Source: an uncultured virus (IMG/VR IMGVR_UViG_2739367660_000007)
Taxonomy: Duplodnaviria > Heunggongvirae > Uroviricota > Caudoviricetes
Virus record (IMG/VR): IMGVR_UViG_2739367660_000007
Reading direction: 5' to 3' (one strand)
DNA: 64,000 nucleotides
Within the stretch, counting starts at the first letter, position 1, and each line of letters starts with the position of its first letter. A program made the position numbers and the translations under genes. Of this stretch, positions 1 through 7,188 are shown piece by piece. The notes beneath the pieces were generated by a model. The model made no database searches. It was not told where the DNA came from and saw only the letters and a list, made by a program, of their open reading frames with translations.

Positions 1-1149
1 ATGACTTTGACCGACAACGCCTGCAAGAACGCCAAGCCTTCGGATGCGGCCAGAAAGATGTCGGATGGGGGCGGTCTTTACCTGTTTGTTACCCCGAGCG
101 GTTCGAAATTATGGAGGATGAACTACCGCTTCGAGGGGAAGCAGAAGACCCTATCCTTCGGCGCTTACCCGGCAGTAGGGCTCAAGGATGCCAGGGCGCA
201 CAGGGACAAGGCCAAGAGCGTTCTGGCTTCCGGTCGAGATCCTGCCGCGCAGACCGCAACTGAGGATAGCTTCGAGGCAGTTGCGCGAGAATGGCATCGC
301 AGCAACGAAACCAAGTGGGTGCCGCAACATTCAGCACGGGTTCTGAGCAGACTGGTGCAGGATGTTTTTCCAGAGATCGGCGGGACGCGGGTTTCGGAGA
401 TCACTCCGTCCCATGTGCTTGCTGTTCTGAGAAAGGTAGAAGGTCGCGGTGTGCGGGACACGCCTCGCCGGCTGCGACAGTCGATCAGCTCGGTGTTCCG
501 GTACGCGGTGGCATCGGGTCTGACGCAGCTGGACCCGGCAGCGAGCATTCACGACGCACTGAAAGCGCGGCCGAAAACAAAACACAGGGCGGCGCTGAAG
601 CCAGAGGAATTGCCGGAATTTTTCGCCAGACTGGCAAAATATGCCGGCAACCCGGTGACTGCCAAGGCGATCTATTTCACGATGCTGACCATGACCCGCA
701 CCGCGGAAGTTCGCTTCGCCACCTGGGCAGAATTTCAGGGGGACACATGGAGGATTCCGGCCGAGCGGATGAAGATGGGGAAAGAGCACCTTGTCCCACT
801 TTCACCTCAGGCGCAGGCAGTTCTGGCCACGCTGGACAGATCGACGGAATGGGTGTTTCCGGGTGTCCGCGGAAGCATGTCCGAAAACACGATGATCTAT
901 GCGCTTTACCGGATGGGATACCACAGCAGGGTCACTGTTCACGGCATGCGGTCTCTGGCCTCGACCATGATGAACGAAAGTGGCTTGTGGCGGGCGGATG
1001 CGATCGAGCGCCAGCTTGCTCATACCCCGAAGAACGAAGTGCGTGCCGCCTATAATGCTGCGCTATACTGGTCTGAACGGTGCCGGATGATGAACTGGTG
1101 GGGAGACTGGATCGAGCAGCAAAAGATGCTCGGTGAAATGTTGGGGTGA
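1..1149 (+). CDS. int: P4-like tyrosine integrase
   Basis: N-terminal arm-binding motif DGGGLYLFVTPSGSKLWRMNYRF; catalytic R (TRTAEVR), HGMR, LAH and Y (RAAYN). Confidence 0.95.
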   Translation: MTLTDNACKNAKPSDAARKMSDGGGLYLFVTPSGSKLWRMNYRFEGKQKTLSFGAYPAVGLKDARAHRDKAKSVLASGRDPAAQTATEDSFEAVAREWHRSNETKWVPQHSARVLSRLVQDVFPEIGGTRVSEITPSHVLAVLRKVEGRGVRDTPRRLRQSISSVFRYAVASGLTQLDPAASIHDALKARPKTKHRAALKPEELPEFFARLAKYAGNPVTAKAIYFTMLTMTRTAEVRFATWAEFQGDTWRIPAERMKMGKEHLVPLSPQAQAVLATLDRSTEWVFPGVRGSMSENTMIYALYRMGYHSRVTVHGMRSLASTMMNESGLWRADAIERQLAHTPKNEVRAAYNAALYWSERCRMMNWWGDWIEQQKMLGEMLG

Positions 1150-2045
1150 GCGCGGGCCACATTTCAGGGGTTCCAAAGGTGCCCGTGGAAGTCAGCATCC
1201 CGCTTTCACTTCACCACTCAGGGGCCGCGCTCAGGAGGATGCATCTGCCGCGACTTGCTAAGCCGGTCACGCGGCGATCCTTGGTGTAAACCGGCGTCCT
1301 TTTGATGCACCCGCCAGAAAGCGGTGCCGCTATTTCCCGGCTGCCAGGTCGGCATGGATCGGCCACGACCATCGTTGGCGCACTGCTCCCATGCTGAGTG
1401 GGCCGTAGCCCTGATGCAACCCTATCGGGCCATCGTGCAAGGTGAGCGCGGGCCGGATAGGATTTGAACCTATATAAGCTACACATCGGAATTACGCCCC
1501 GTAACCAAAATTCGGCACCGGACTCCGCGCTCACGAGGTCACAGATTTACCGGGTTTCCCCGGAAACATGGCAGGTGGCCACCTTACTCACTGTCTAACA
1601 ATGCCGAGGTGCGACCCCGATGCCGGATGTGAGAACCATGTCAATCTGTGACCGCGTGAAAGCGGTTGCGGGTTGGGTGTATTGCGGCTCCCGCCTTCCG
1701 CTTGTTCCGACACCCTCGGCATGACCCATAACCGGCATCCAGGTCAACATTTCTCCTATCACCTTTCGGCAAGAGGCCGGTAGAAACACAAGTTGAGCGT
1801 GGGCCGTTCGCACGGACTTGAACCGCTGTCACCCGCTTTCACGCTGGTAGGCTTTACCCACAGCACTCGTTGCCGAACCACGCTCAGGAGGATGCTGAAA
1901 GGCCCTTTTGGTTTCACCCGCTCGCTCATCCTTGAGGAGTCTTGCTCTACGGGTCACTCATTCAGCATCCGCCAGAAAGCGGTTGCGCGGTTATCGAGAC
2001 GCGCCCCTCGGGGTCGGTTGTGAATTTGAATACCACCTCGCATCC
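1147..2045 (-). ncRNA. Putative polycistronic structured ncRNA array: three related ~300-350 nt units of stem-closed modules
   Basis: Repeated closing stems with compensatory changes, conserved linkers, two T-loop-like hairpins and GAAA loops on the minus strand, no credible ORF. Confidence 0.7.
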
Positions 2046-2053
2046 ACAAATCA

Positions 2054-2082
2054 ATATTGGCGTGATTCGTGTTGCTTTGCAA
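2054..2082 (-). promoter_or_regulatory. Putative sigma70 promoter for the ncRNA array
   Basis: Minus strand TTGCAA-17 bp-CAATAT; predicted start ~2047, next to the first stem at 2045. Confidence 0.5.
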
Positions 2083-2134
2083 GTTAAAAGTGATAATCTG
2101 AATCCATCAAGTCACCGCCATGACGAGGGGAAGC

Positions 2135-2305
2135 ATGTTTTTGAGAATCGGAGAAGTGATCAAGCGTACCGGGCTCGCCCGCAGCACGATCTATCAGATG
2201 GCAAGGGAGGGGAGGTTCCCGCCGCCGCGCCGCATTTCCTATCGCGTATCGGCGTGGGTCGAAGGCGAGATCGTCGCCTGGCAAGAAAAGTTCGTGAAGG
2301 GTTGA
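2135..2305 (+). CDS. alpA: AlpA-family HTH protein / excisionase
   Basis: MFLRIGEVIKRTGLARSTIYQMAREGRFPPP...SAWVEGEI is a typical AlpA pattern; near the integrase. Confidence 0.9.
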   Translation: MFLRIGEVIKRTGLARSTIYQMAREGRFPPPRRISYRVSAWVEGEIVAWQEKFVKG

Positions 2306-2308
2306 TCC

Positions 2309-2944
2309 GTGACTGATGATCTGGACGCACTTCTCGGGCCTCCGTCGCCTCGACCTGAGCCTGAGCCCCATCCATCCATGTTCCGCAAGCCGGTTGGGGT
2401 GACCTTTCTCGCTCAGGTCGTCGGCAAACAGCCCTACCAGATCGAGAAGCGCCTGGCGAAGTGTCCGGTCAAGGAATGGGATCGCCGTGGTGCGAAGTCG
2501 CACCCGAAGTATGATTTCGTCGAGGCGATGGGCTACCTGATCAATCCCAAAATCGACATCGAGGATTGGCTGTCATCGAAAAATGCAGCCAGCCTCCCGC
2601 CGTACATCAACAAGATGTTCTGGGATTCTGCCATGCAGCGCATCCGTGTGATGAACGCTGCCGGTGACCTTTGGCATACCGAAGATGTTCTCGTCGTGAT
2701 GGGAAGAGTCGCCCTTCTTATCAAGGAAGAAGCGAAAAACTGGATCGAGGATCTTCCTGAAAAGGATCAGTTGAGCAACGAGCAGTATGAATTTCTGCTG
2801 GGGGCTGTCGACCGGCTGATTTCTTCAGTTCGCAACCGTCTGATTGACCTTCCCAAGGAGGGTCTGACGCGGGCGAGCATGTCCGACACCATCATTTCCG
2901 AACTCGAAGCAAGCGGCGAGATGCCGTCGCAAGAGGACGAATGA
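2309..2944 (+). CDS. Terminase small subunit (DUF1441-like)
   Basis: Immediately upstream of TerL with ATGA overlap; LPPYINKMFWDS...AGDLWHTEDV motif. Confidence 0.75.
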   Translation: MTDDLDALLGPPSPRPEPEPHPSMFRKPVGVTFLAQVVGKQPYQIEKRLAKCPVKEWDRRGAKSHPKYDFVEAMGYLINPKIDIEDWLSSKNAASLPPYINKMFWDSAMQRIRVMNAAGDLWHTEDVLVVMGRVALLIKEEAKNWIEDLPEKDQLSNEQYEFLLGAVDRLISSVRNRLIDLPKEGLTRASMSDTIISELEASGEMPSQEDE

Positions 2945-5130
2945 CAGCCAGGACCATTAAGGCCCCATCCGTAAGAGACCTGGCTGAGGCGGCCAGGTAT
3001 CATGGGATCGAAGAGATTGCGGCAAAAGCATTCGACATGATGCAGCCGGCAGAGCGGCTGACAGTGGCGCAATGCGCACAAGAATACATGTTTTTCGGAT
3101 CAGGGTCCGGGCACAAGACCCGATGGTCGCCGCTCAAGACCCCATATCTGATCGAACCGATGAACATGCTGACGAGCCTGGACCATCAGGGCATGATTTT
3201 CGTTGGCCCGGCCCGAACCGGCAAAACGGCAATGTCTCTGGGGTGGATGGCGCATACGGTCATCACCGATCCGGCAGACATGCTTTACGTTCAGATGGAC
3301 CGGGAAAATGCTCGCAAGTTTTCCAACGGGGATCTGCAACGTTTTCTCGTGGCGTCGGATGAGGTGCGCAAGCGCCAGCTCACCAAGCGTCAGATGGATA
3401 ACACCTTCGACAAGACGTTTGAGTCGGGGATGCGGTTTCTGCTGACCTACCCGACTGCCTCCAACCTGTCGAACATCACCGTCGGCCGGGTCTGGCTGAT
3501 CGACTATGAACGCATGGACGATGATGTTGGCGGCGAAGGCACGCCCTACGACATGGCGGCGAAGCGGACGCAAACCTTCGGGCGCCGCGGGATGACCGTA
3601 GCCGAGGCGTCCCCGAACCCGAACAAGGAAATCACCGATCCGAAGTGGGCACCCCAATCCCCACATCAGGCCCCGCCGATCAAAGGCATTTTCGAACTCT
3701 ACAATCGTGGTGATCGCCGCAGGTTCTATTGGTTTTGCCCGAAGTGCGGATCTCCGTTCGAGCCGGATTTCAAACACCTCGTCGGTTACGAGGACGCTCG
3801 CGACATGCTTGAGGCGCGGGAGAAAACCTACATGCGGTGTCCGGTCAGAGGTTGTCCGATCGAGCCGAAATACAAAGACGCCATGAACATGAAGGGTGTC
3901 TGGGTGCCCGACTGGGCGCGCGTCGATGCAGATGGCGTCATCTCCCCTATTCGCGAAGACGGTTACATCGCTCGATCAAACATCGCCTCCTTCTGGTTGA
4001 AGGGACCGGCCGCAGGTTACGTCACATGGGGCGAACTTGCTGCAAAATACCTCACCGCGACGAAGGCGCTCGAAGAGACCGGAGACGACGGGCCGCTGCG
4101 CACCACGATCACCGTGGATCAGGGGAGTTATTACATCCCGGCCTCGCGTCTGTCCGAACGATCCCCGGAACAGCTGAAAGAAAAGGCAGAAGACTGGGGG
4201 TCGACCGAGGAAGAACCGACAATCCCACCATGGGTGCGGTTCCTCGTTGCCACCATCGACGTGCAGAAAACCTGCTTCGTGGTTCAGATCAACGGCTATA
4301 CCTCATCTGGAGATCTTGTCGTCATCGACGGCTTCAAACTGCGCTTGTCGGATCGACGCAACGCAGACGGAGACAGGTTGCCGATGGACCCAGCCGCCTA
4401 TGGTGAGGACTGGGATATTCTGGTGCGCGAGGTGATGCGGAAAACCTACGCGCTGTCCGACGGTAGCGGTCGCCGCATGGCGATCCGGGCAACAGGATGC
4501 GACTCCGGTGGCGCGGAGGGGGTGACAACGCACGCCTATAATTTGTGGCGCCGTCTCAAGCAGACAGAGGACGGGCTTCATCGTCGCTTCATTCTGGTGA
4601 AAGGTGAGCCGAGCAAGACGGCCCCGAGAGCCCGCGCGACGTGGCCGGATTCCTCTCGCAAGGACAAGTATGCCGTTGCGCGCGGGGATGTGCCGGTCCT
4701 TCTGCTCAATTCCAACCTCGTAAAGGATCTGGTCAGCGGGATGTTGGCGCGCACCGTGGGCCAGGAGGATCAAAACGAGATAGGTGTCAGTGGCAGGGTT
4801 CGTTTCCCGACATGGATGCAGCCGTGGTTCTACAATCAGATGACCACGGAAATTCGCACCGAGAAAGGCTGGGAGAATCCCCGTCGCCGTCGAAATGAAG
4901 CGTGGGACTTGAGCTGTTACGCCATGGGTATCGTGGTGCGGCCTATCGAGAGGGAGGCGCCGTGGGTGCATTTCGGTATCGAACGCATCGACTGGACCAA
5001 TCCTCCGACATGGGCGGCCGAGTGGGATGACAACGATTTCATCGTCAACCCGGAAGCCGATGAAAGTACGGTCGCAGAGAAGCAGAAATCCAAACCGAGC
5101 TTCGCTGATCTAGCTTCACGACTGGCCTGA
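2941..5130 (+). CDS. terL: Terminase large subunit, lambda GpA family
   Basis: TPYLIEPM, Walker A GPARTGKT, CPKCG zinc motif, ATIDVQ and DSGG nuclease motifs, RRNEAWD. Confidence 0.95.
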   Translation: MTARTIKAPSVRDLAEAARYHGIEEIAAKAFDMMQPAERLTVAQCAQEYMFFGSGSGHKTRWSPLKTPYLIEPMNMLTSLDHQGMIFVGPARTGKTAMSLGWMAHTVITDPADMLYVQMDRENARKFSNGDLQRFLVASDEVRKRQLTKRQMDNTFDKTFESGMRFLLTYPTASNLSNITVGRVWLIDYERMDDDVGGEGTPYDMAAKRTQTFGRRGMTVAEASPNPNKEITDPKWAPQSPHQAPPIKGIFELYNRGDRRRFYWFCPKCGSPFEPDFKHLVGYEDARDMLEAREKTYMRCPVRGCPIEPKYKDAMNMKGVWVPDWARVDADGVISPIREDGYIARSNIASFWLKGPAAGYVTWGELAAKYLTATKALEETGDDGPLRTTITVDQGSYYIPASRLSERSPEQLKEKAEDWGSTEEEPTIPPWVRFLVATIDVQKTCFVVQINGYTSSGDLVVIDGFKLRLSDRRNADGDRLPMDPAAYGEDWDILVREVMRKTYALSDGSGRRMAIRATGCDSGGAEGVTTHAYNLWRRLKQTEDGLHRRFILVKGEPSKTAPRARATWPDSSRKDKYAVARGDVPVLLLNSNLVKDLVSGMLARTVGQEDQNEIGVSGRVRFPTWMQPWFYNQMTTEIRTEKGWENPRRRRNEAWDLSCYAMGIVVRPIEREAPWVHFGIERIDWTNPPTWAAEWDDNDFIVNPEADESTVAEKQKSKPSFADLASRLA

Positions 5131-5484: not shown

Positions 5485-7188
5485 ATGAGCATTCAGGAAG
5501 AACTCAACGCATTGCTCGGCCCCGCCTCTCATCCTCCGGGCGAGGGCTATGCGGTCCACGCCCCGGCAACCGTGGCGGCGGTGGCCGGGGTGTCGGGCGG
5601 CGGTATTGCTCACGATGGTGCGAAAGCATTCAGTGAACTGGCGCTCTGGTCCCCGCCTCTGCGTTCGGTCAATGCTGACGTTCTGCCCGAGAAGGGCGTG
5701 CTCGATGCCAAGACCCGCGATCTGTTCCGCAACGATGCTTTTCTGTCCGGTGCAATGGTCACCCACAAGGACAGCATCGTTGGTGCGCGATTCATGCTGA
5801 ATGCTCGCCCCGCGACGAAGATCCTCTGGGGTAAAGAGGATGACACCTGGGAAGAAGAGTTTCAGGAGGAAATCGAAACCCGCTTCGATCTGTGGGCTGA
5901 ATCCCCCCATGGCTGGCCCGACGTGGGTAAGCGCAACACGCTCACTGCAACCGTGCGCCTCGGCGTCGGTGTTGATCTTGCCGGTGGCGAAGTTCTCGGT
6001 CTCGCGCGCTGGATGCCCAACGACGGCCGGCCCTATCGCACTGCATTTCAGATGATTGACCCGGATCGTCTTTCCGATCCGCTGACGCAGGCGTTCGTGT
6101 TTCCCAATCCGCGCCTGCGTCGCGGGATCGAGGTCGATGATTTCGGCGCACCCGTCGCGGCGTGGATCCGCAATTCGCATCCGTCTGATGGCCCGTTTCA
6201 CGACTATTCGGACATGAAGCGGAACGACTGGACGCGGGTTCCGTGGAACCGCCCATGGGGGCGCCAGAACATTCTGCACATCTTCGAGCAGATGCGCCCC
6301 GAGCAGGCCCGTGGCATTTCCATCGCTTCTTCATCTCTCAACGAGATGAAGATGACCAAGCATTTCCGCAAAGCGCAGCTTCAGCGTGCGACCTTGGCGG
6401 CGTCCTATGCAATGGCACTGGAAGCTGAATTGCCTCAAGACACCACGCAGGCCCTTGGTGTCGGGTATGCCGCAGACGGCAACGCCACGACCCAGTGGAT
6501 GCTCGACTATCTCGCTGCGGTGCAAGAGTATTCCGGTGGTGCGAAAAACCTGCACGTCGACGGTGTGCAGATCCCGATGCTGCCGCCAGGTTCCAAGCTG
6601 TCGGTTCAGAACACCGGGGCGACGGGGCCGAACGACGCCGAGTATGAAATCAGCCTGCTGCGGTATTCGGCTGCCGCGCTCGGTCTGCCGCTGGAAGAGT
6701 TCATCCACGATTTCAGACAGACAAACTATTCCTCGGTTCGCGCGGCGTTGGGGCGGATGTGGGTCTCGATGCAAGTGCGCAAGCGCATGGTTGCGGAGCG
6801 CATTGCCAACTTCATTTACCGCCTGTGGCTGGAAGAGGCGATCAATCGCAACGAGATCGAGAGCCTGAAGCGTCGCAACGTTCCTTCTTTCTACGAAGGT
6901 CTGAACGCCGAAGCCTATTCGGCTTGCGAATGGATCGGGTCCGGTCGGGGCACGATTGACCCGCTCAAGGAAACGCAGGCCGACATCCTGGCACTCAAAG
7001 CCGGAATTGAGACGAAGGAAGCGATCATCGCTCGCAGAAGCGGTGCCGATTACCGCCGTGTCGCGCGCCAGATCGCGCGTGAACGCAAGCTGGATGCCTA
7101 CTTCGAAAATCCGAGCGTCTACGACGCCGACAGCAAGAACGTGCAAAACTCGCTGACGGCGAGTCCGCGTGATGGGGCCGCCGCATGA
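5485..7188 (+). CDS. Portal protein, lambda family
   Basis: RDLFRND, RPEQARGI, TNYSSVRAAL and IDPLKE motifs. Confidence 0.93.
   Translation: MSIQEELNALLGPASHPPGEGYAVHAPATVAAVAGVSGGGIAHDGAKAFSELALWSPPLRSVNADVLPEKGVLDAKTRDLFRNDAFLSGAMVTHKDSIVGARFMLNARPATKILWGKEDDTWEEEFQEEIETRFDLWAESPHGWPDVGKRNTLTATVRLGVGVDLAGGEVLGLARWMPNDGRPYRTAFQMIDPDRLSDPLTQAFVFPNPRLRRGIEVDDFGAPVAAWIRNSHPSDGPFHDYSDMKRNDWTRVPWNRPWGRQNILHIFEQMRPEQARGISIASSSLNEMKMTKHFRKAQLQRATLAASYAMALEAELPQDTTQALGVGYAADGNATTQWMLDYLAAVQEYSGGAKNLHVDGVQIPMLPPGSKLSVQNTGATGPNDAEYEISLLRYSAAALGLPLEEFIHDFRQTNYSSVRAALGRMWVSMQVRKRMVAERIANFIYRLWLEEAINRNEIESLKRRNVPSFYEGLNAEAYSACEWIGSGRGTIDPLKETQADILALKAGIETKEAIIARRSGADYRRVARQIARERKLDAYFENPSVYDADSKNVQNSLTASPRDGAAA

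Follow-up and report, generated by a model that had tools for sequence, protein, structure and literature searches.

A tandem array of predicted RNA units between int and alpA

The window analyzed here is a 64,000-nt stretch of DNA from an uncultured virus of the Caudoviricetes (IMG/VR record IMGVR_UViG_2739367660_000007; G000:C8:155126-219125). The 970-bp gap between its integrase gene (int) and alpA holds, at 1147–1982, three tandem units of a single RNA architecture on the minus strand. Comparison with related sequences shows which strand is folded, which helices the predicted RNA forms, and that it belongs to a phage-borne family living among tRNA and small RNA (sRNA) genes. As to function, we regard as plausible, if somewhat short of probable, a self-promoted sRNA operon in which a constant platform would serve folding, processing and stability while variable inserts act in trans. 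A first-pass annotation of the window had described a triplicated array of A, B and C modules in this gap. That observation is confirmed: all of the repeats it listed are present, and the gap holds three related units. Its interpretation is partly supported: comparison bears out the minus strand, the conserved scaffold with exchanged interiors, the tRNA likeness of some interiors and the recurrence of a promoter-like site upstream, while the cutting of one precursor into 8 or more RNAs, a part for RNase P in this, and immunity, antisense or decoy roles stand as proposals.

Read 5′ to 3′, a unit comprises a tail, CCGCUYU (9 nt as CCGCUYUNN), a helix B and, directly abutting it, a helix A; the interiors of both helices are variable, and unit length ranges from 110 to 280 nt. 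Helix B runs on as N-G-Y-G-G/C-C-U-C-N′, with a conserved Y·U mismatch and no spacer to helix A. Helix A is a 9-bp stem, UGAGCGCGG/CCGCGCUCA, almost invariant and usually followed by A; its changes are one compensatory change in unit 3 of the window and one G·U pair in locus L132. Every element of this platform—the CCGCUYU tail, NGYGG...CCUCN′ with N and N′ paired, and the abutting UGAGCGYGG...CCRCGCUCA—is found in all three window units.

Unit 3 (1794–1982) comes first on the minus strand. Its tail lies at 1974–1982, the 5′ strand of extended B at 1969–1973, B at 1892–1968 and CCUCC at 1887–1891; helix A follows with its 5′ strand UGAGCGUGG at 1878–1886, a cloverleaf-like interior at 1803–1877 and its 3′ strand CCACGCUCA at 1794–1802. 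The compensatory change, C–G to U–A, is the one that the first-pass annotation had seen in the third A stem. Unit 2 (1443–1665) has its tail at 1657–1665, extended-B 5′ strand at 1652–1656, a B of 113 nt at 1539–1651 that contains the hairpin CCGGG-GAAA-CCCGG, CCUCG at 1534–1538, and helix A strands at 1525–1533 and 1443–1451 around a tRNA-like interior (1452–1524). In unit 1 (1147–1324), the corresponding elements are at 1316–1324 (tail), 1311–1315 (extended-B 5′ strand), 1239–1310 (B), 1234–1238 (CCUCC), 1225–1233 (helix A 5′ strand), 1156–1224 (interior) and 1147–1155 (helix A 3′ strand), the last of these overlapping the integrase stop codon. The N:N′ pair is G–C, C–G and G–C in units 3, 2 and 1, respectively. 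The B stems, 5 nt from the A stems, are unrelated among themselves in sequence and yet paired, as first described.

Two elements of the earlier description take on a different meaning. The GC(CA/GT)GAAAGC blocks at 1313, 1654 and 1971 are indeed there, although not as a free linker hairpin: each is complementary to the conserved tail and the extended-B 5′ strand taken together. The C modules, likewise present in the window, are not conserved across the family; their place in relatives is taken by a promoter, a GNRA or GC hairpin, an intrinsic terminator, a tRNA or the previous unit.

The unit recurs in other phages

Nucleotide searches with the 951-bp region found no relative in 300 other genomes of the host family (one 34-nt match, E 4e-4) and no match in 50,697 phage records. 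Relatives emerged from pattern searches. A scaffold pattern returned 17 viral stretches, 15 of which have the full architecture (one is the window's own phage); L141 and L142 were dropped as chance coding matches. When genome contigs were scanned, 1 of 70 stretches proved real, in a prophage of Paracoccus siganidrum (L170), the other 69 being, by our filter, chance matches in GC-rich genomes. A pattern written for the RNA strand gave 29 metagenome stretches and 46 further viral stretches, and a paired B stem was seen in 29/29 newly met loci. Five of the metagenome stretches (L218, L223, L225, L231 and L233) were dropped as chance matches; they look coding, and helix A, checked in L218 and L233, closes only at 146 nt. 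An initial, looser pattern was abandoned, as most of its 119 stretches belonged to an unrelated coding repeat of 87 nt.

After removal of identical sequences, the collection comprised 59 distinct units from 55 fetched loci, phage or metagenome, with some contigs fetched repeatedly. Recurrence of the scaffold in so many distinct units of other contigs indicates more than chance. One caveat here is that family statistics come from anchored regular expressions that require the invariant core, such that diverged members are missed and the 'invariance' is partly by construction. Unit number varies from 1 to 3 copies and, in support of the first-pass annotation, the scaffold is kept while interiors are exchanged between phages.

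Pieces of the array also turned up on their own. Four wastewater 'RNA-Seq' runs, probably DNA, contained only short mosaic contigs matching parts of window 1086–2220. These contigs match single modules at 85–99% identity with unrelated flanks, and the segment 1667–1724 occurs in several contexts, which suggests shuffling of modules among related phages. 'Orphan' A modules, UGAGCGCGG...C(C/G)CGCUCA lacking a preceding B helix, were seen in L282 (2697–2769, minus strand) and in L275 (800–856, plus strand), the latter adjoining a true tRNA-Met.

Pairing and the folded strand

Pairing was assessed in an 18-unit MAFFT alignment against 500 shuffles and against controls in which the strands were slid. 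Paired cells amount to 99%, versus 85.7% in shuffles (0/500 reach the observed value) and 31–61% in the slid controls. Changes on both sides were seen for 6/17 pairs overall and for 5/8 pairs of extended B. In an anchored analysis of 35 units, six B pairs showed Watson–Crick covariation, and the nucleotide before GYGG was unexpectedly found to covary with the last nucleotide of CCUCN. This N:N′ pair holds in 59/59 units (GC 30, UA 27, GU 1, CG 1). Our first model had instead a small hairpin, CCGC/GYGG, and was replaced on account of the N:N′ covariation; the small hairpin may still form as an alternative fold.

Across the 59 distinct units, the 531 helix cells include 429 Watson–Crick pairs, 50 G·U and 6 A·C. 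An example from the window is the third B pair of unit 1, which reads G·U on the minus strand and A·C on the plus. In addition, true tRNA genes in related loci are co-oriented with the units in 8/8 cases (L135, two in L241, two in L264, L275, L289 and L261; six loci). The excess of G·U over A·C, together with these eight genes, identifies the window's minus strand as the one that is folded, in agreement with the strand of the first-pass annotation. Folding of the whole region was of no use for this purpose, with z-scores of –2.3 (minus) and –3.0 (plus) that do not tell the strands apart.

These data also bear on the idea that the element acts at the DNA level, as a recombination, attachment (att), packaging or miniature inverted-repeat transposable element (MITE)-like repeat in double- or single-stranded form. 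Such a role would suit its perfect 9-bp inverted repeats, its position beside integrase in the window and in L282 and beside terminase genes elsewhere, and the mosaic exchange of pieces in metagenome contigs. It is at odds with the G·U bias, which points to a single folded strand, and with the common orientation of units and genes for tRNAs and sRNAs. Moreover, the true att site is a 23-bp tRNA-Met 3′ end located elsewhere (see below). Nor are there the many dispersed copies typical of repetitive extragenic palindromic (REP) elements or MITEs: the 5.1-Mb genome contains no copy beyond the three units, and of 401 host-family genomes only the window's own carries the exact pattern. We give this idea, its folded single-stranded form included, the smallest chance of those weighed here. 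The locus does not resemble an integron attC/cassette array either: the integrase is P4-type rather than IntI-type, most relatives have no integrase in the flanks scanned, and the G·U bias and tRNA co-orientation point to RNA, although no search was made for attC core boxes.

The tail can pair with helix A

In exact register with helix B, the tail can also pair with the helix A 5′ strand (C-G, C-G, G-C, C-G, U·C, Y-G, U-A), which makes it a weakened copy of the helix A 3′ strand. This pairing holds in 100% of cells, compared to 26–67% for slid strands, and covariation is precluded by the invariance of both partners. In the alternative fold that results, a single long, irregular helix extends over at least 20 bp. 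When 54 units were folded under constraints, the mean energy difference between the two folds was 0.2 kcal/mol (median –0.5), with the closed-A fold lower in 30/54. Judging from these models, competition between the tail and the A 3′ strand could make a two-state switch possible.

Variable inserts and their likeness to tRNA

Although the A and B interiors differ between units, they form recurring families. One family of B inserts shares ACUUGCAAG, and the A inserts of L237 and L245 show apparent covariation by eye. In L134 and L147, the B insert is 98% common while the A inserts are at background identity (60%), indicating that inserts are exchanged independently.

The first-pass annotation had called the modules tRNA-like. 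This is borne out for some interiors, but most inserts are not tRNA-like. The T-arm-like hairpins noted on the minus strand of A2 and A3 are present (GCGG-UUCAAGU-CCGU in unit 3), and among 35 units four such hairpins occur on the RNA strand and none on the opposite strand, with 0.16 expected. ARAGORN reports no tRNA gene in 1147–2082. The Rfam tRNA model (RF00005) matches A2 (1449–1524, minus strand) at 27.6 bits (E 0.0033), below its cut-off of 29, and gives no match to A1 or A3 at E ≤ 10. In L264, the A module (1030–1123) scores 31.4 bits, above the cut-off; here five inner pairs of helix A make up the acceptor stem, which UGAG/CUCA on the outside extends as leader and trailer. Unlike a tRNA gene with its 7-bp acceptor stem, the unit has a closing helix of 9 bp or more plus an inner stem, and its 3′ side reads CUCA rather than NCCA.

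Might the array then be a decaying phage tRNA cluster, with A (and B) modules as functionless pseudo-tRNAs? The scores of A2 and of the L264 module, the T-arm hairpins in some inserts, and the true tRNAs in equivalent slots point that way; L135, for example, has a true tRNA-Ser where L132 has its second unit, followed by an identical 12-nt spacer. Yet the invariant platform lies outside any part of a tRNA and is kept across ∼55 loci, helix B covaries, and most inserts have no tRNA likeness. Insert families recur, apparently covarying in L237 and L245 (by eye), and in a decaying cluster 9-bp helices next to unrelated terminase families would not stay identical. The data at hand already speak against decay, which we consider very unlikely.

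Promoters and flanking hairpins

A TTGCAA-17-CAATAT site that the first-pass annotation had proposed as a promoter lies on the minus strand at 2054–2082 (–35 at 2082–2077, –10 at 2059–2054), ∼70 nt upstream of unit 3. By consensus the site is weak, and a consensus promoter scan of 900–2400 returned no site. However, TTGAC(A/C)-17/18-CATAST sites are found 55–88 nt upstream of units in many relatives, and promoter-like sites scoring at least 9/12 precede 21/58 units on the RNA strand versus 7/58 on the opposite strand. This recurrence lends some support to the weak window site. L145 has TTGCAA-17-CAAGAT. In other loci, near-consensus sites end closer to the unit, at a distance of 10 nt: L140 (on one contig with L271) and L220 have TTGACA-17-TATAAA, and L143 has the variant TTTACA-17-TATAAA at the equivalent place. 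Within the array, the spacer between units 3 and 2 ('C2', 1666–1793) carries TTGACC-18-CATGCC, a putative promoter by its sequence, and a predicted hairpin before unit 2.

A stable hairpin nearly always ends 2–12 nt before the tail, whether a GNRA or GC hairpin, the previous unit, a tRNA, or a hairpin with a U-run. The last type lies directly upstream in 9/35 units. In the window, the leader of unit 3 ('C3', 1983–2053) contains the GC hairpin GCGCG-UCUCGAUAAC-CGCGC, ending 2 nt before the unit in a fold of the upstream 40 nt; GC hairpins of this type also occur in L282, L140 and L143. The spacer between units 2 and 1 ('C1', 1325–1442) has GCCGG-GAAAUAG-CGGC before unit 1. Downstream, intrinsic terminators are rare, being found within 200 nt of only 5/56 units. 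Most units thus run on into the next genes, an arrangement compatible with a leader and a stand-alone sRNA alike.

Neighbors of the unit: packaging genes

In 18/37 viral loci with scanned flanks, a large terminase gene (terL), of the Terminase_3 or Terminase_6 family, lies downstream of the unit within 3 kb and co-oriented with it. Start codons follow helix A by 20–45 nt. Regulator genes are located just upstream of the unit in some loci: a sigma-70 region 4-like gene in L146, and in L289 a regulator with both sigma-70 region 4 and GerE/LuxR matches. L136, a prophage, encodes at 3387–4121 (minus strand) a 244-aa protein with a NusG N-terminal domain (E 2e-7), just upstream of the unit and co-oriented with it and with terS/terL. 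Other arrangements exist. The unit is antisense to flanking packaging genes in L140 and L143 (in L143, between terL and the portal gene), and in the window the array points away from alpA-terS-terL and toward int. In L282, the unit precedes alpA on the same strand, and in L272 it stands beside integrase or primase genes.

These neighbors raise the question of whether the unit is a cis-acting two-state leader of the late/packaging operon that, lying between a promoter or leader terminator and terS/terL, controls read-through, processing or stability of the late transcript, in the manner of lambdoid late leaders, HK022 put RNAs and T7 RNase III sites. On this view, the array in the window would derive from such a leader by inversion and triplication, and might act as a convergent antisense RNA to int. 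The position ahead of terL, the distance to start codons, the rarity of downstream terminators, the upstream hairpins with U-runs, the regulator genes (L136, L146 and L289) and the nearly equal energies of the two folds are all in keeping with a leader. Against this stand the loci in which the unit opposes its neighbors (the window, L140 and L143), precedes alpA (L282) or adjoins integrase/primase genes (L272), as well as the copy number of 1 to 3. A near-identical platform is found beside three unrelated terminase families (Terminase_3, Terminase_6 and GpA), and no structure ties either fold to a terminator or ribosome-binding site. On balance, we deem a leader switch possible but unlikely.

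Neighbors of the unit: tRNA and sRNA genes

Units abut tRNAs at 4–12 nt in L289, L241 and L135, and tandem units are separated by 2–12 nt. On the metagenome contig L239, a match to the Rhodobacter sRNA SorX (1424–1499, plus strand; 47.6 bits, cut-off 46.6) ends 1 nt before a co-oriented unit. In the viral contig L282, a unit is followed by a SorX-like RNA that has a lower score (25.5 bits) and a terminator (2878–2940, minus strand). In two further loci, an abiF motif occurs just downstream of the unit on the same strand (L245, 1892–1928, plus strand; L290, 2850–2886, minus strand; 39.9 and 37.3 bits, cut-off 37), and an abiF-like core occupies the same position in L143, around 2985–2999 (minus strand). 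No Abi_2 protein was identified among the flanking open reading frames (ORFs) scanned beside the abiF motifs, the ORFs of L245 being outside the scan; these motifs may be orphan antitoxin-like RNAs. As a general partner of the unit, the abiF motif was rejected: a core search found it in 3/47 loci, in two of which (L143 and L245) it comes just after the unit, and Rfam adds L290.

The short distances to tRNAs invite another explanation, namely a new kind of RNA that cleaves itself or acts in processing, trimming adjacent tRNAs and sRNAs and cutting the array into units, with the invariant tail, mismatch and helices as its core and the variable stems at its periphery. Invariant nucleotides do cluster at the helix junction and tail while stem lengths vary, and the 2–12-nt spacers of tandem units are suggestive. 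There is also precedent: PMC10879173 describes theta ribozymes, which are hepatitis delta virus (HDV)-like and compact, directly beside phage tRNAs. No HDV-like fold can be drawn for our unit, however, as the abutting hairpins leave no P1/P2 strands. In the Rfam scans, nothing apart from tRNA passed E 1 for the unit, and no ribozyme matched in the window or in 38 related loci; Rfam, we presume, holds models for hammerhead, HDV-like, twister, twister-sister, pistol and hatchet ribozymes. Units lie at varying distances from tRNAs, covariation supports no pseudoknot, and most units have no tRNA inside the fetched flanks. Self-cleavage accordingly strikes us as improbable.

A candidate sRNA operon with exchangeable inserts

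In the model that we favor, the array would be a minus-strand sRNA operon with its own weak promoter (2082–2054), convergent with int. An invariant two-helix platform (tail, B and A) would hold two variable apical inserts and act as a folding and processing scaffold, in which the tail, by pairing or not with the A 5′ strand, would set the choice between a long helix (at least 20 bp) and a closed A helix. Between units, AU-rich spacers are predicted to be single-stranded. Host RNases (RNase E, III or P) could cut the precursor at features of platform or spacer, releasing stem-protected RNAs whose variable inserts would act in trans, for instance as regulators or as decoys that resemble tRNA. 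The region as a whole may be an accessory RNA island that in related phages also includes tRNAs, SorX-like sRNAs and solitary abiF-motif antitoxin-like RNAs.

Independence from neighboring genes supports this model, the unit being opposite to its flanking genes in the window, L140 and L143 and preceded at 10 nt by near-consensus promoters in L140, L220 and L143. The pairing and strand data, the co-oriented tRNA, SorX and abiF neighbors, the tRNA likeness of some inserts, the insert exchange between L134 and L147 and the nearly equal energies of the two folds also speak for it. Several observations count against it. An antisense search of the host genome yielded only chance matches of 15–17 nt and no target, nor did a partner protein or defence system come to light. 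Likeness to tRNA is confined to a minority of inserts, the two-fold feature has no covariation support, given that tail and helix A never vary, and both the scarcity of downstream terminators and the frequent position ahead of terL are unhelpful to a stand-alone sRNA. A bolder extension of the model, which we hold to be unlikely, is that Rhodobacteraceae phages share an RNA 'display cassette', a bistable invariant platform that a host factor recognizes and cuts and into which unrelated inserts, tRNA mimics among them, are swapped by recombination, and that arrays, tRNAs, SorX and orphan abiF motifs together would make up an RNA-only counter-defence island.

Relation to known RNAs

Rfam 15 was scanned with the window and 38 related loci, with matches listed at E 0.5 to 10, and with the whole window also at gathering cut-offs. 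No family matches the unit, in line with the first-pass annotation, which had not recognized the architecture, and the whole window returned nothing at gathering cut-offs. When 900–2400 was searched with cmscan on both strands at E ≤ 10, only tRNA, freshwater-1 and sR23 were listed. An 'int-alpA' motif, which we take to come from a motif survey, was not found in the main text of that survey, and Rfam gave no such match. We did not find the element described in the literature searched, to which the supplements of large motif surveys, such as the 224 motifs of PMC5737381, did not belong.

The closest known systems resemble the unit only in kind. Units share strand and operon position with true tRNAs, the A helix closes its insert as an acceptor stem does, and some A inserts have analogues of D-, anticodon- and T-arms. 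In contrast to tRNA, the closing helix is invariant, no CCA is encoded (the end is CUCA, then mostly A), and most inserts are not cloverleaves. The immunity RNAs P1 C4 and P4 CI, to which the first-pass annotation had pointed, are tRNA-like RNAs cut by RNase P from an operon leader. By analogy only, they too are small phage RNAs of a leader, with paired 5′ and 3′ ends and a repeat on the same transcript that can pair. The present units differ in that orientation to neighbors varies and two helices carry swappable inserts; no conserved complementary box of the C4/CI target type was seen downstream of units, and the family, presumably RF01695, gave no match in 900–2400 at E ≤ 10. The phage T4 stable RNAs species 1 and 2 are comparable as non-tRNA species that are co-transcribed with phage tRNAs and whose function is unknown, but we know of no repeated invariant platform in T4. 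In HK022 put RNAs, which precede phage operons, two stem-loops follow each other almost without a spacer. The unit is likewise an adjacent stem-loop pair; in its relatives, though, terminators are upstream rather than downstream, and some copies are antisense to their neighbors.

GOLLD and ROOL are single RNAs of ∼600–800 nt, whereas the present unit, at 110–280 nt, is much smaller and repeated. PMC5737381 describes both as phage-associated, often beside tRNAs and of unknown function; they have their own Rfam models, which do not match here. Type III antitoxin-like RNAs (ToxI repeats; abiF motif, bioRxiv 10.1101/2025.04.15.648962) are tandem structured repeats in phage-related loci. Apart from the abiF neighbors described above, the similarity ends there: the unit has no adjacent toxin gene, and its repeats are much longer with variable inserts. 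The abiF motif (RF03085) has no match in the window, and in L245 and L290 its matches are beside units, not inside.

If these conclusions hold, the unit represents a phage RNA family that is missing from Rfam and has unusually strong comparative support in its invariant core, covariation and interchangeable inserts. It would be a new element of phage tRNA/sRNA islands and, with two near-isoenergetic folds, a defined and testable candidate for an RNA scaffold or switch. Its neighbors—orphan abiF-motif RNAs, SorX-like sRNAs and tRNAs—would point to RNA-based host manipulation or counter-defence by marine Rhodobacteraceae phages, about which little is known. The platform is also potentially useful as a natural carrier for expression of structured RNAs.

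Prophage setting

The integrase gene (1–1149, plus strand; Pfam Arm-DNA-bind_3, Phage_int_M and Phage_integrase) encodes a P4-type tyrosine integrase and converges with the array. On the other side, an AlpA-family regulator gene (2120–2305, plus strand; Pfam) diverges from it, and is followed on the same strand by a DUF1441 protein gene (2309–2944), read as the small terminase subunit from a sub-threshold Pfam match (23.1 bits, cut-off 35.1), and by the gpA large terminase gene (2941–5130; Pfam). Downstream of gpA are gpW and a lambda-type portal gene. A tRNA-Met gene is located 150 nt upstream of int. Its last 23 nt (L009 9826–9848 = C8:154951–154973) form a direct repeat with a second copy at C8:221113–221135, ∼2 kb beyond the window end. 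These repeats are likely attL and attR of a ∼66-kb prophage that spans the whole window, which places the true att site outside the int–alpA gap.

Two observations on tRNA genes in this genome are added here. ARAGORN calls an 89-nt 'tRNA-Val' at window 5575–5663 (plus strand), inside the portal gene (5485–7188); the call is probably false, since Rfam finds no tRNA there at gathering cut-offs. On another contig of the same genome (G000:C2:367343-394458), ARAGORN finds 37 tRNA genes on one strand within ∼27 kb, a very dense array.

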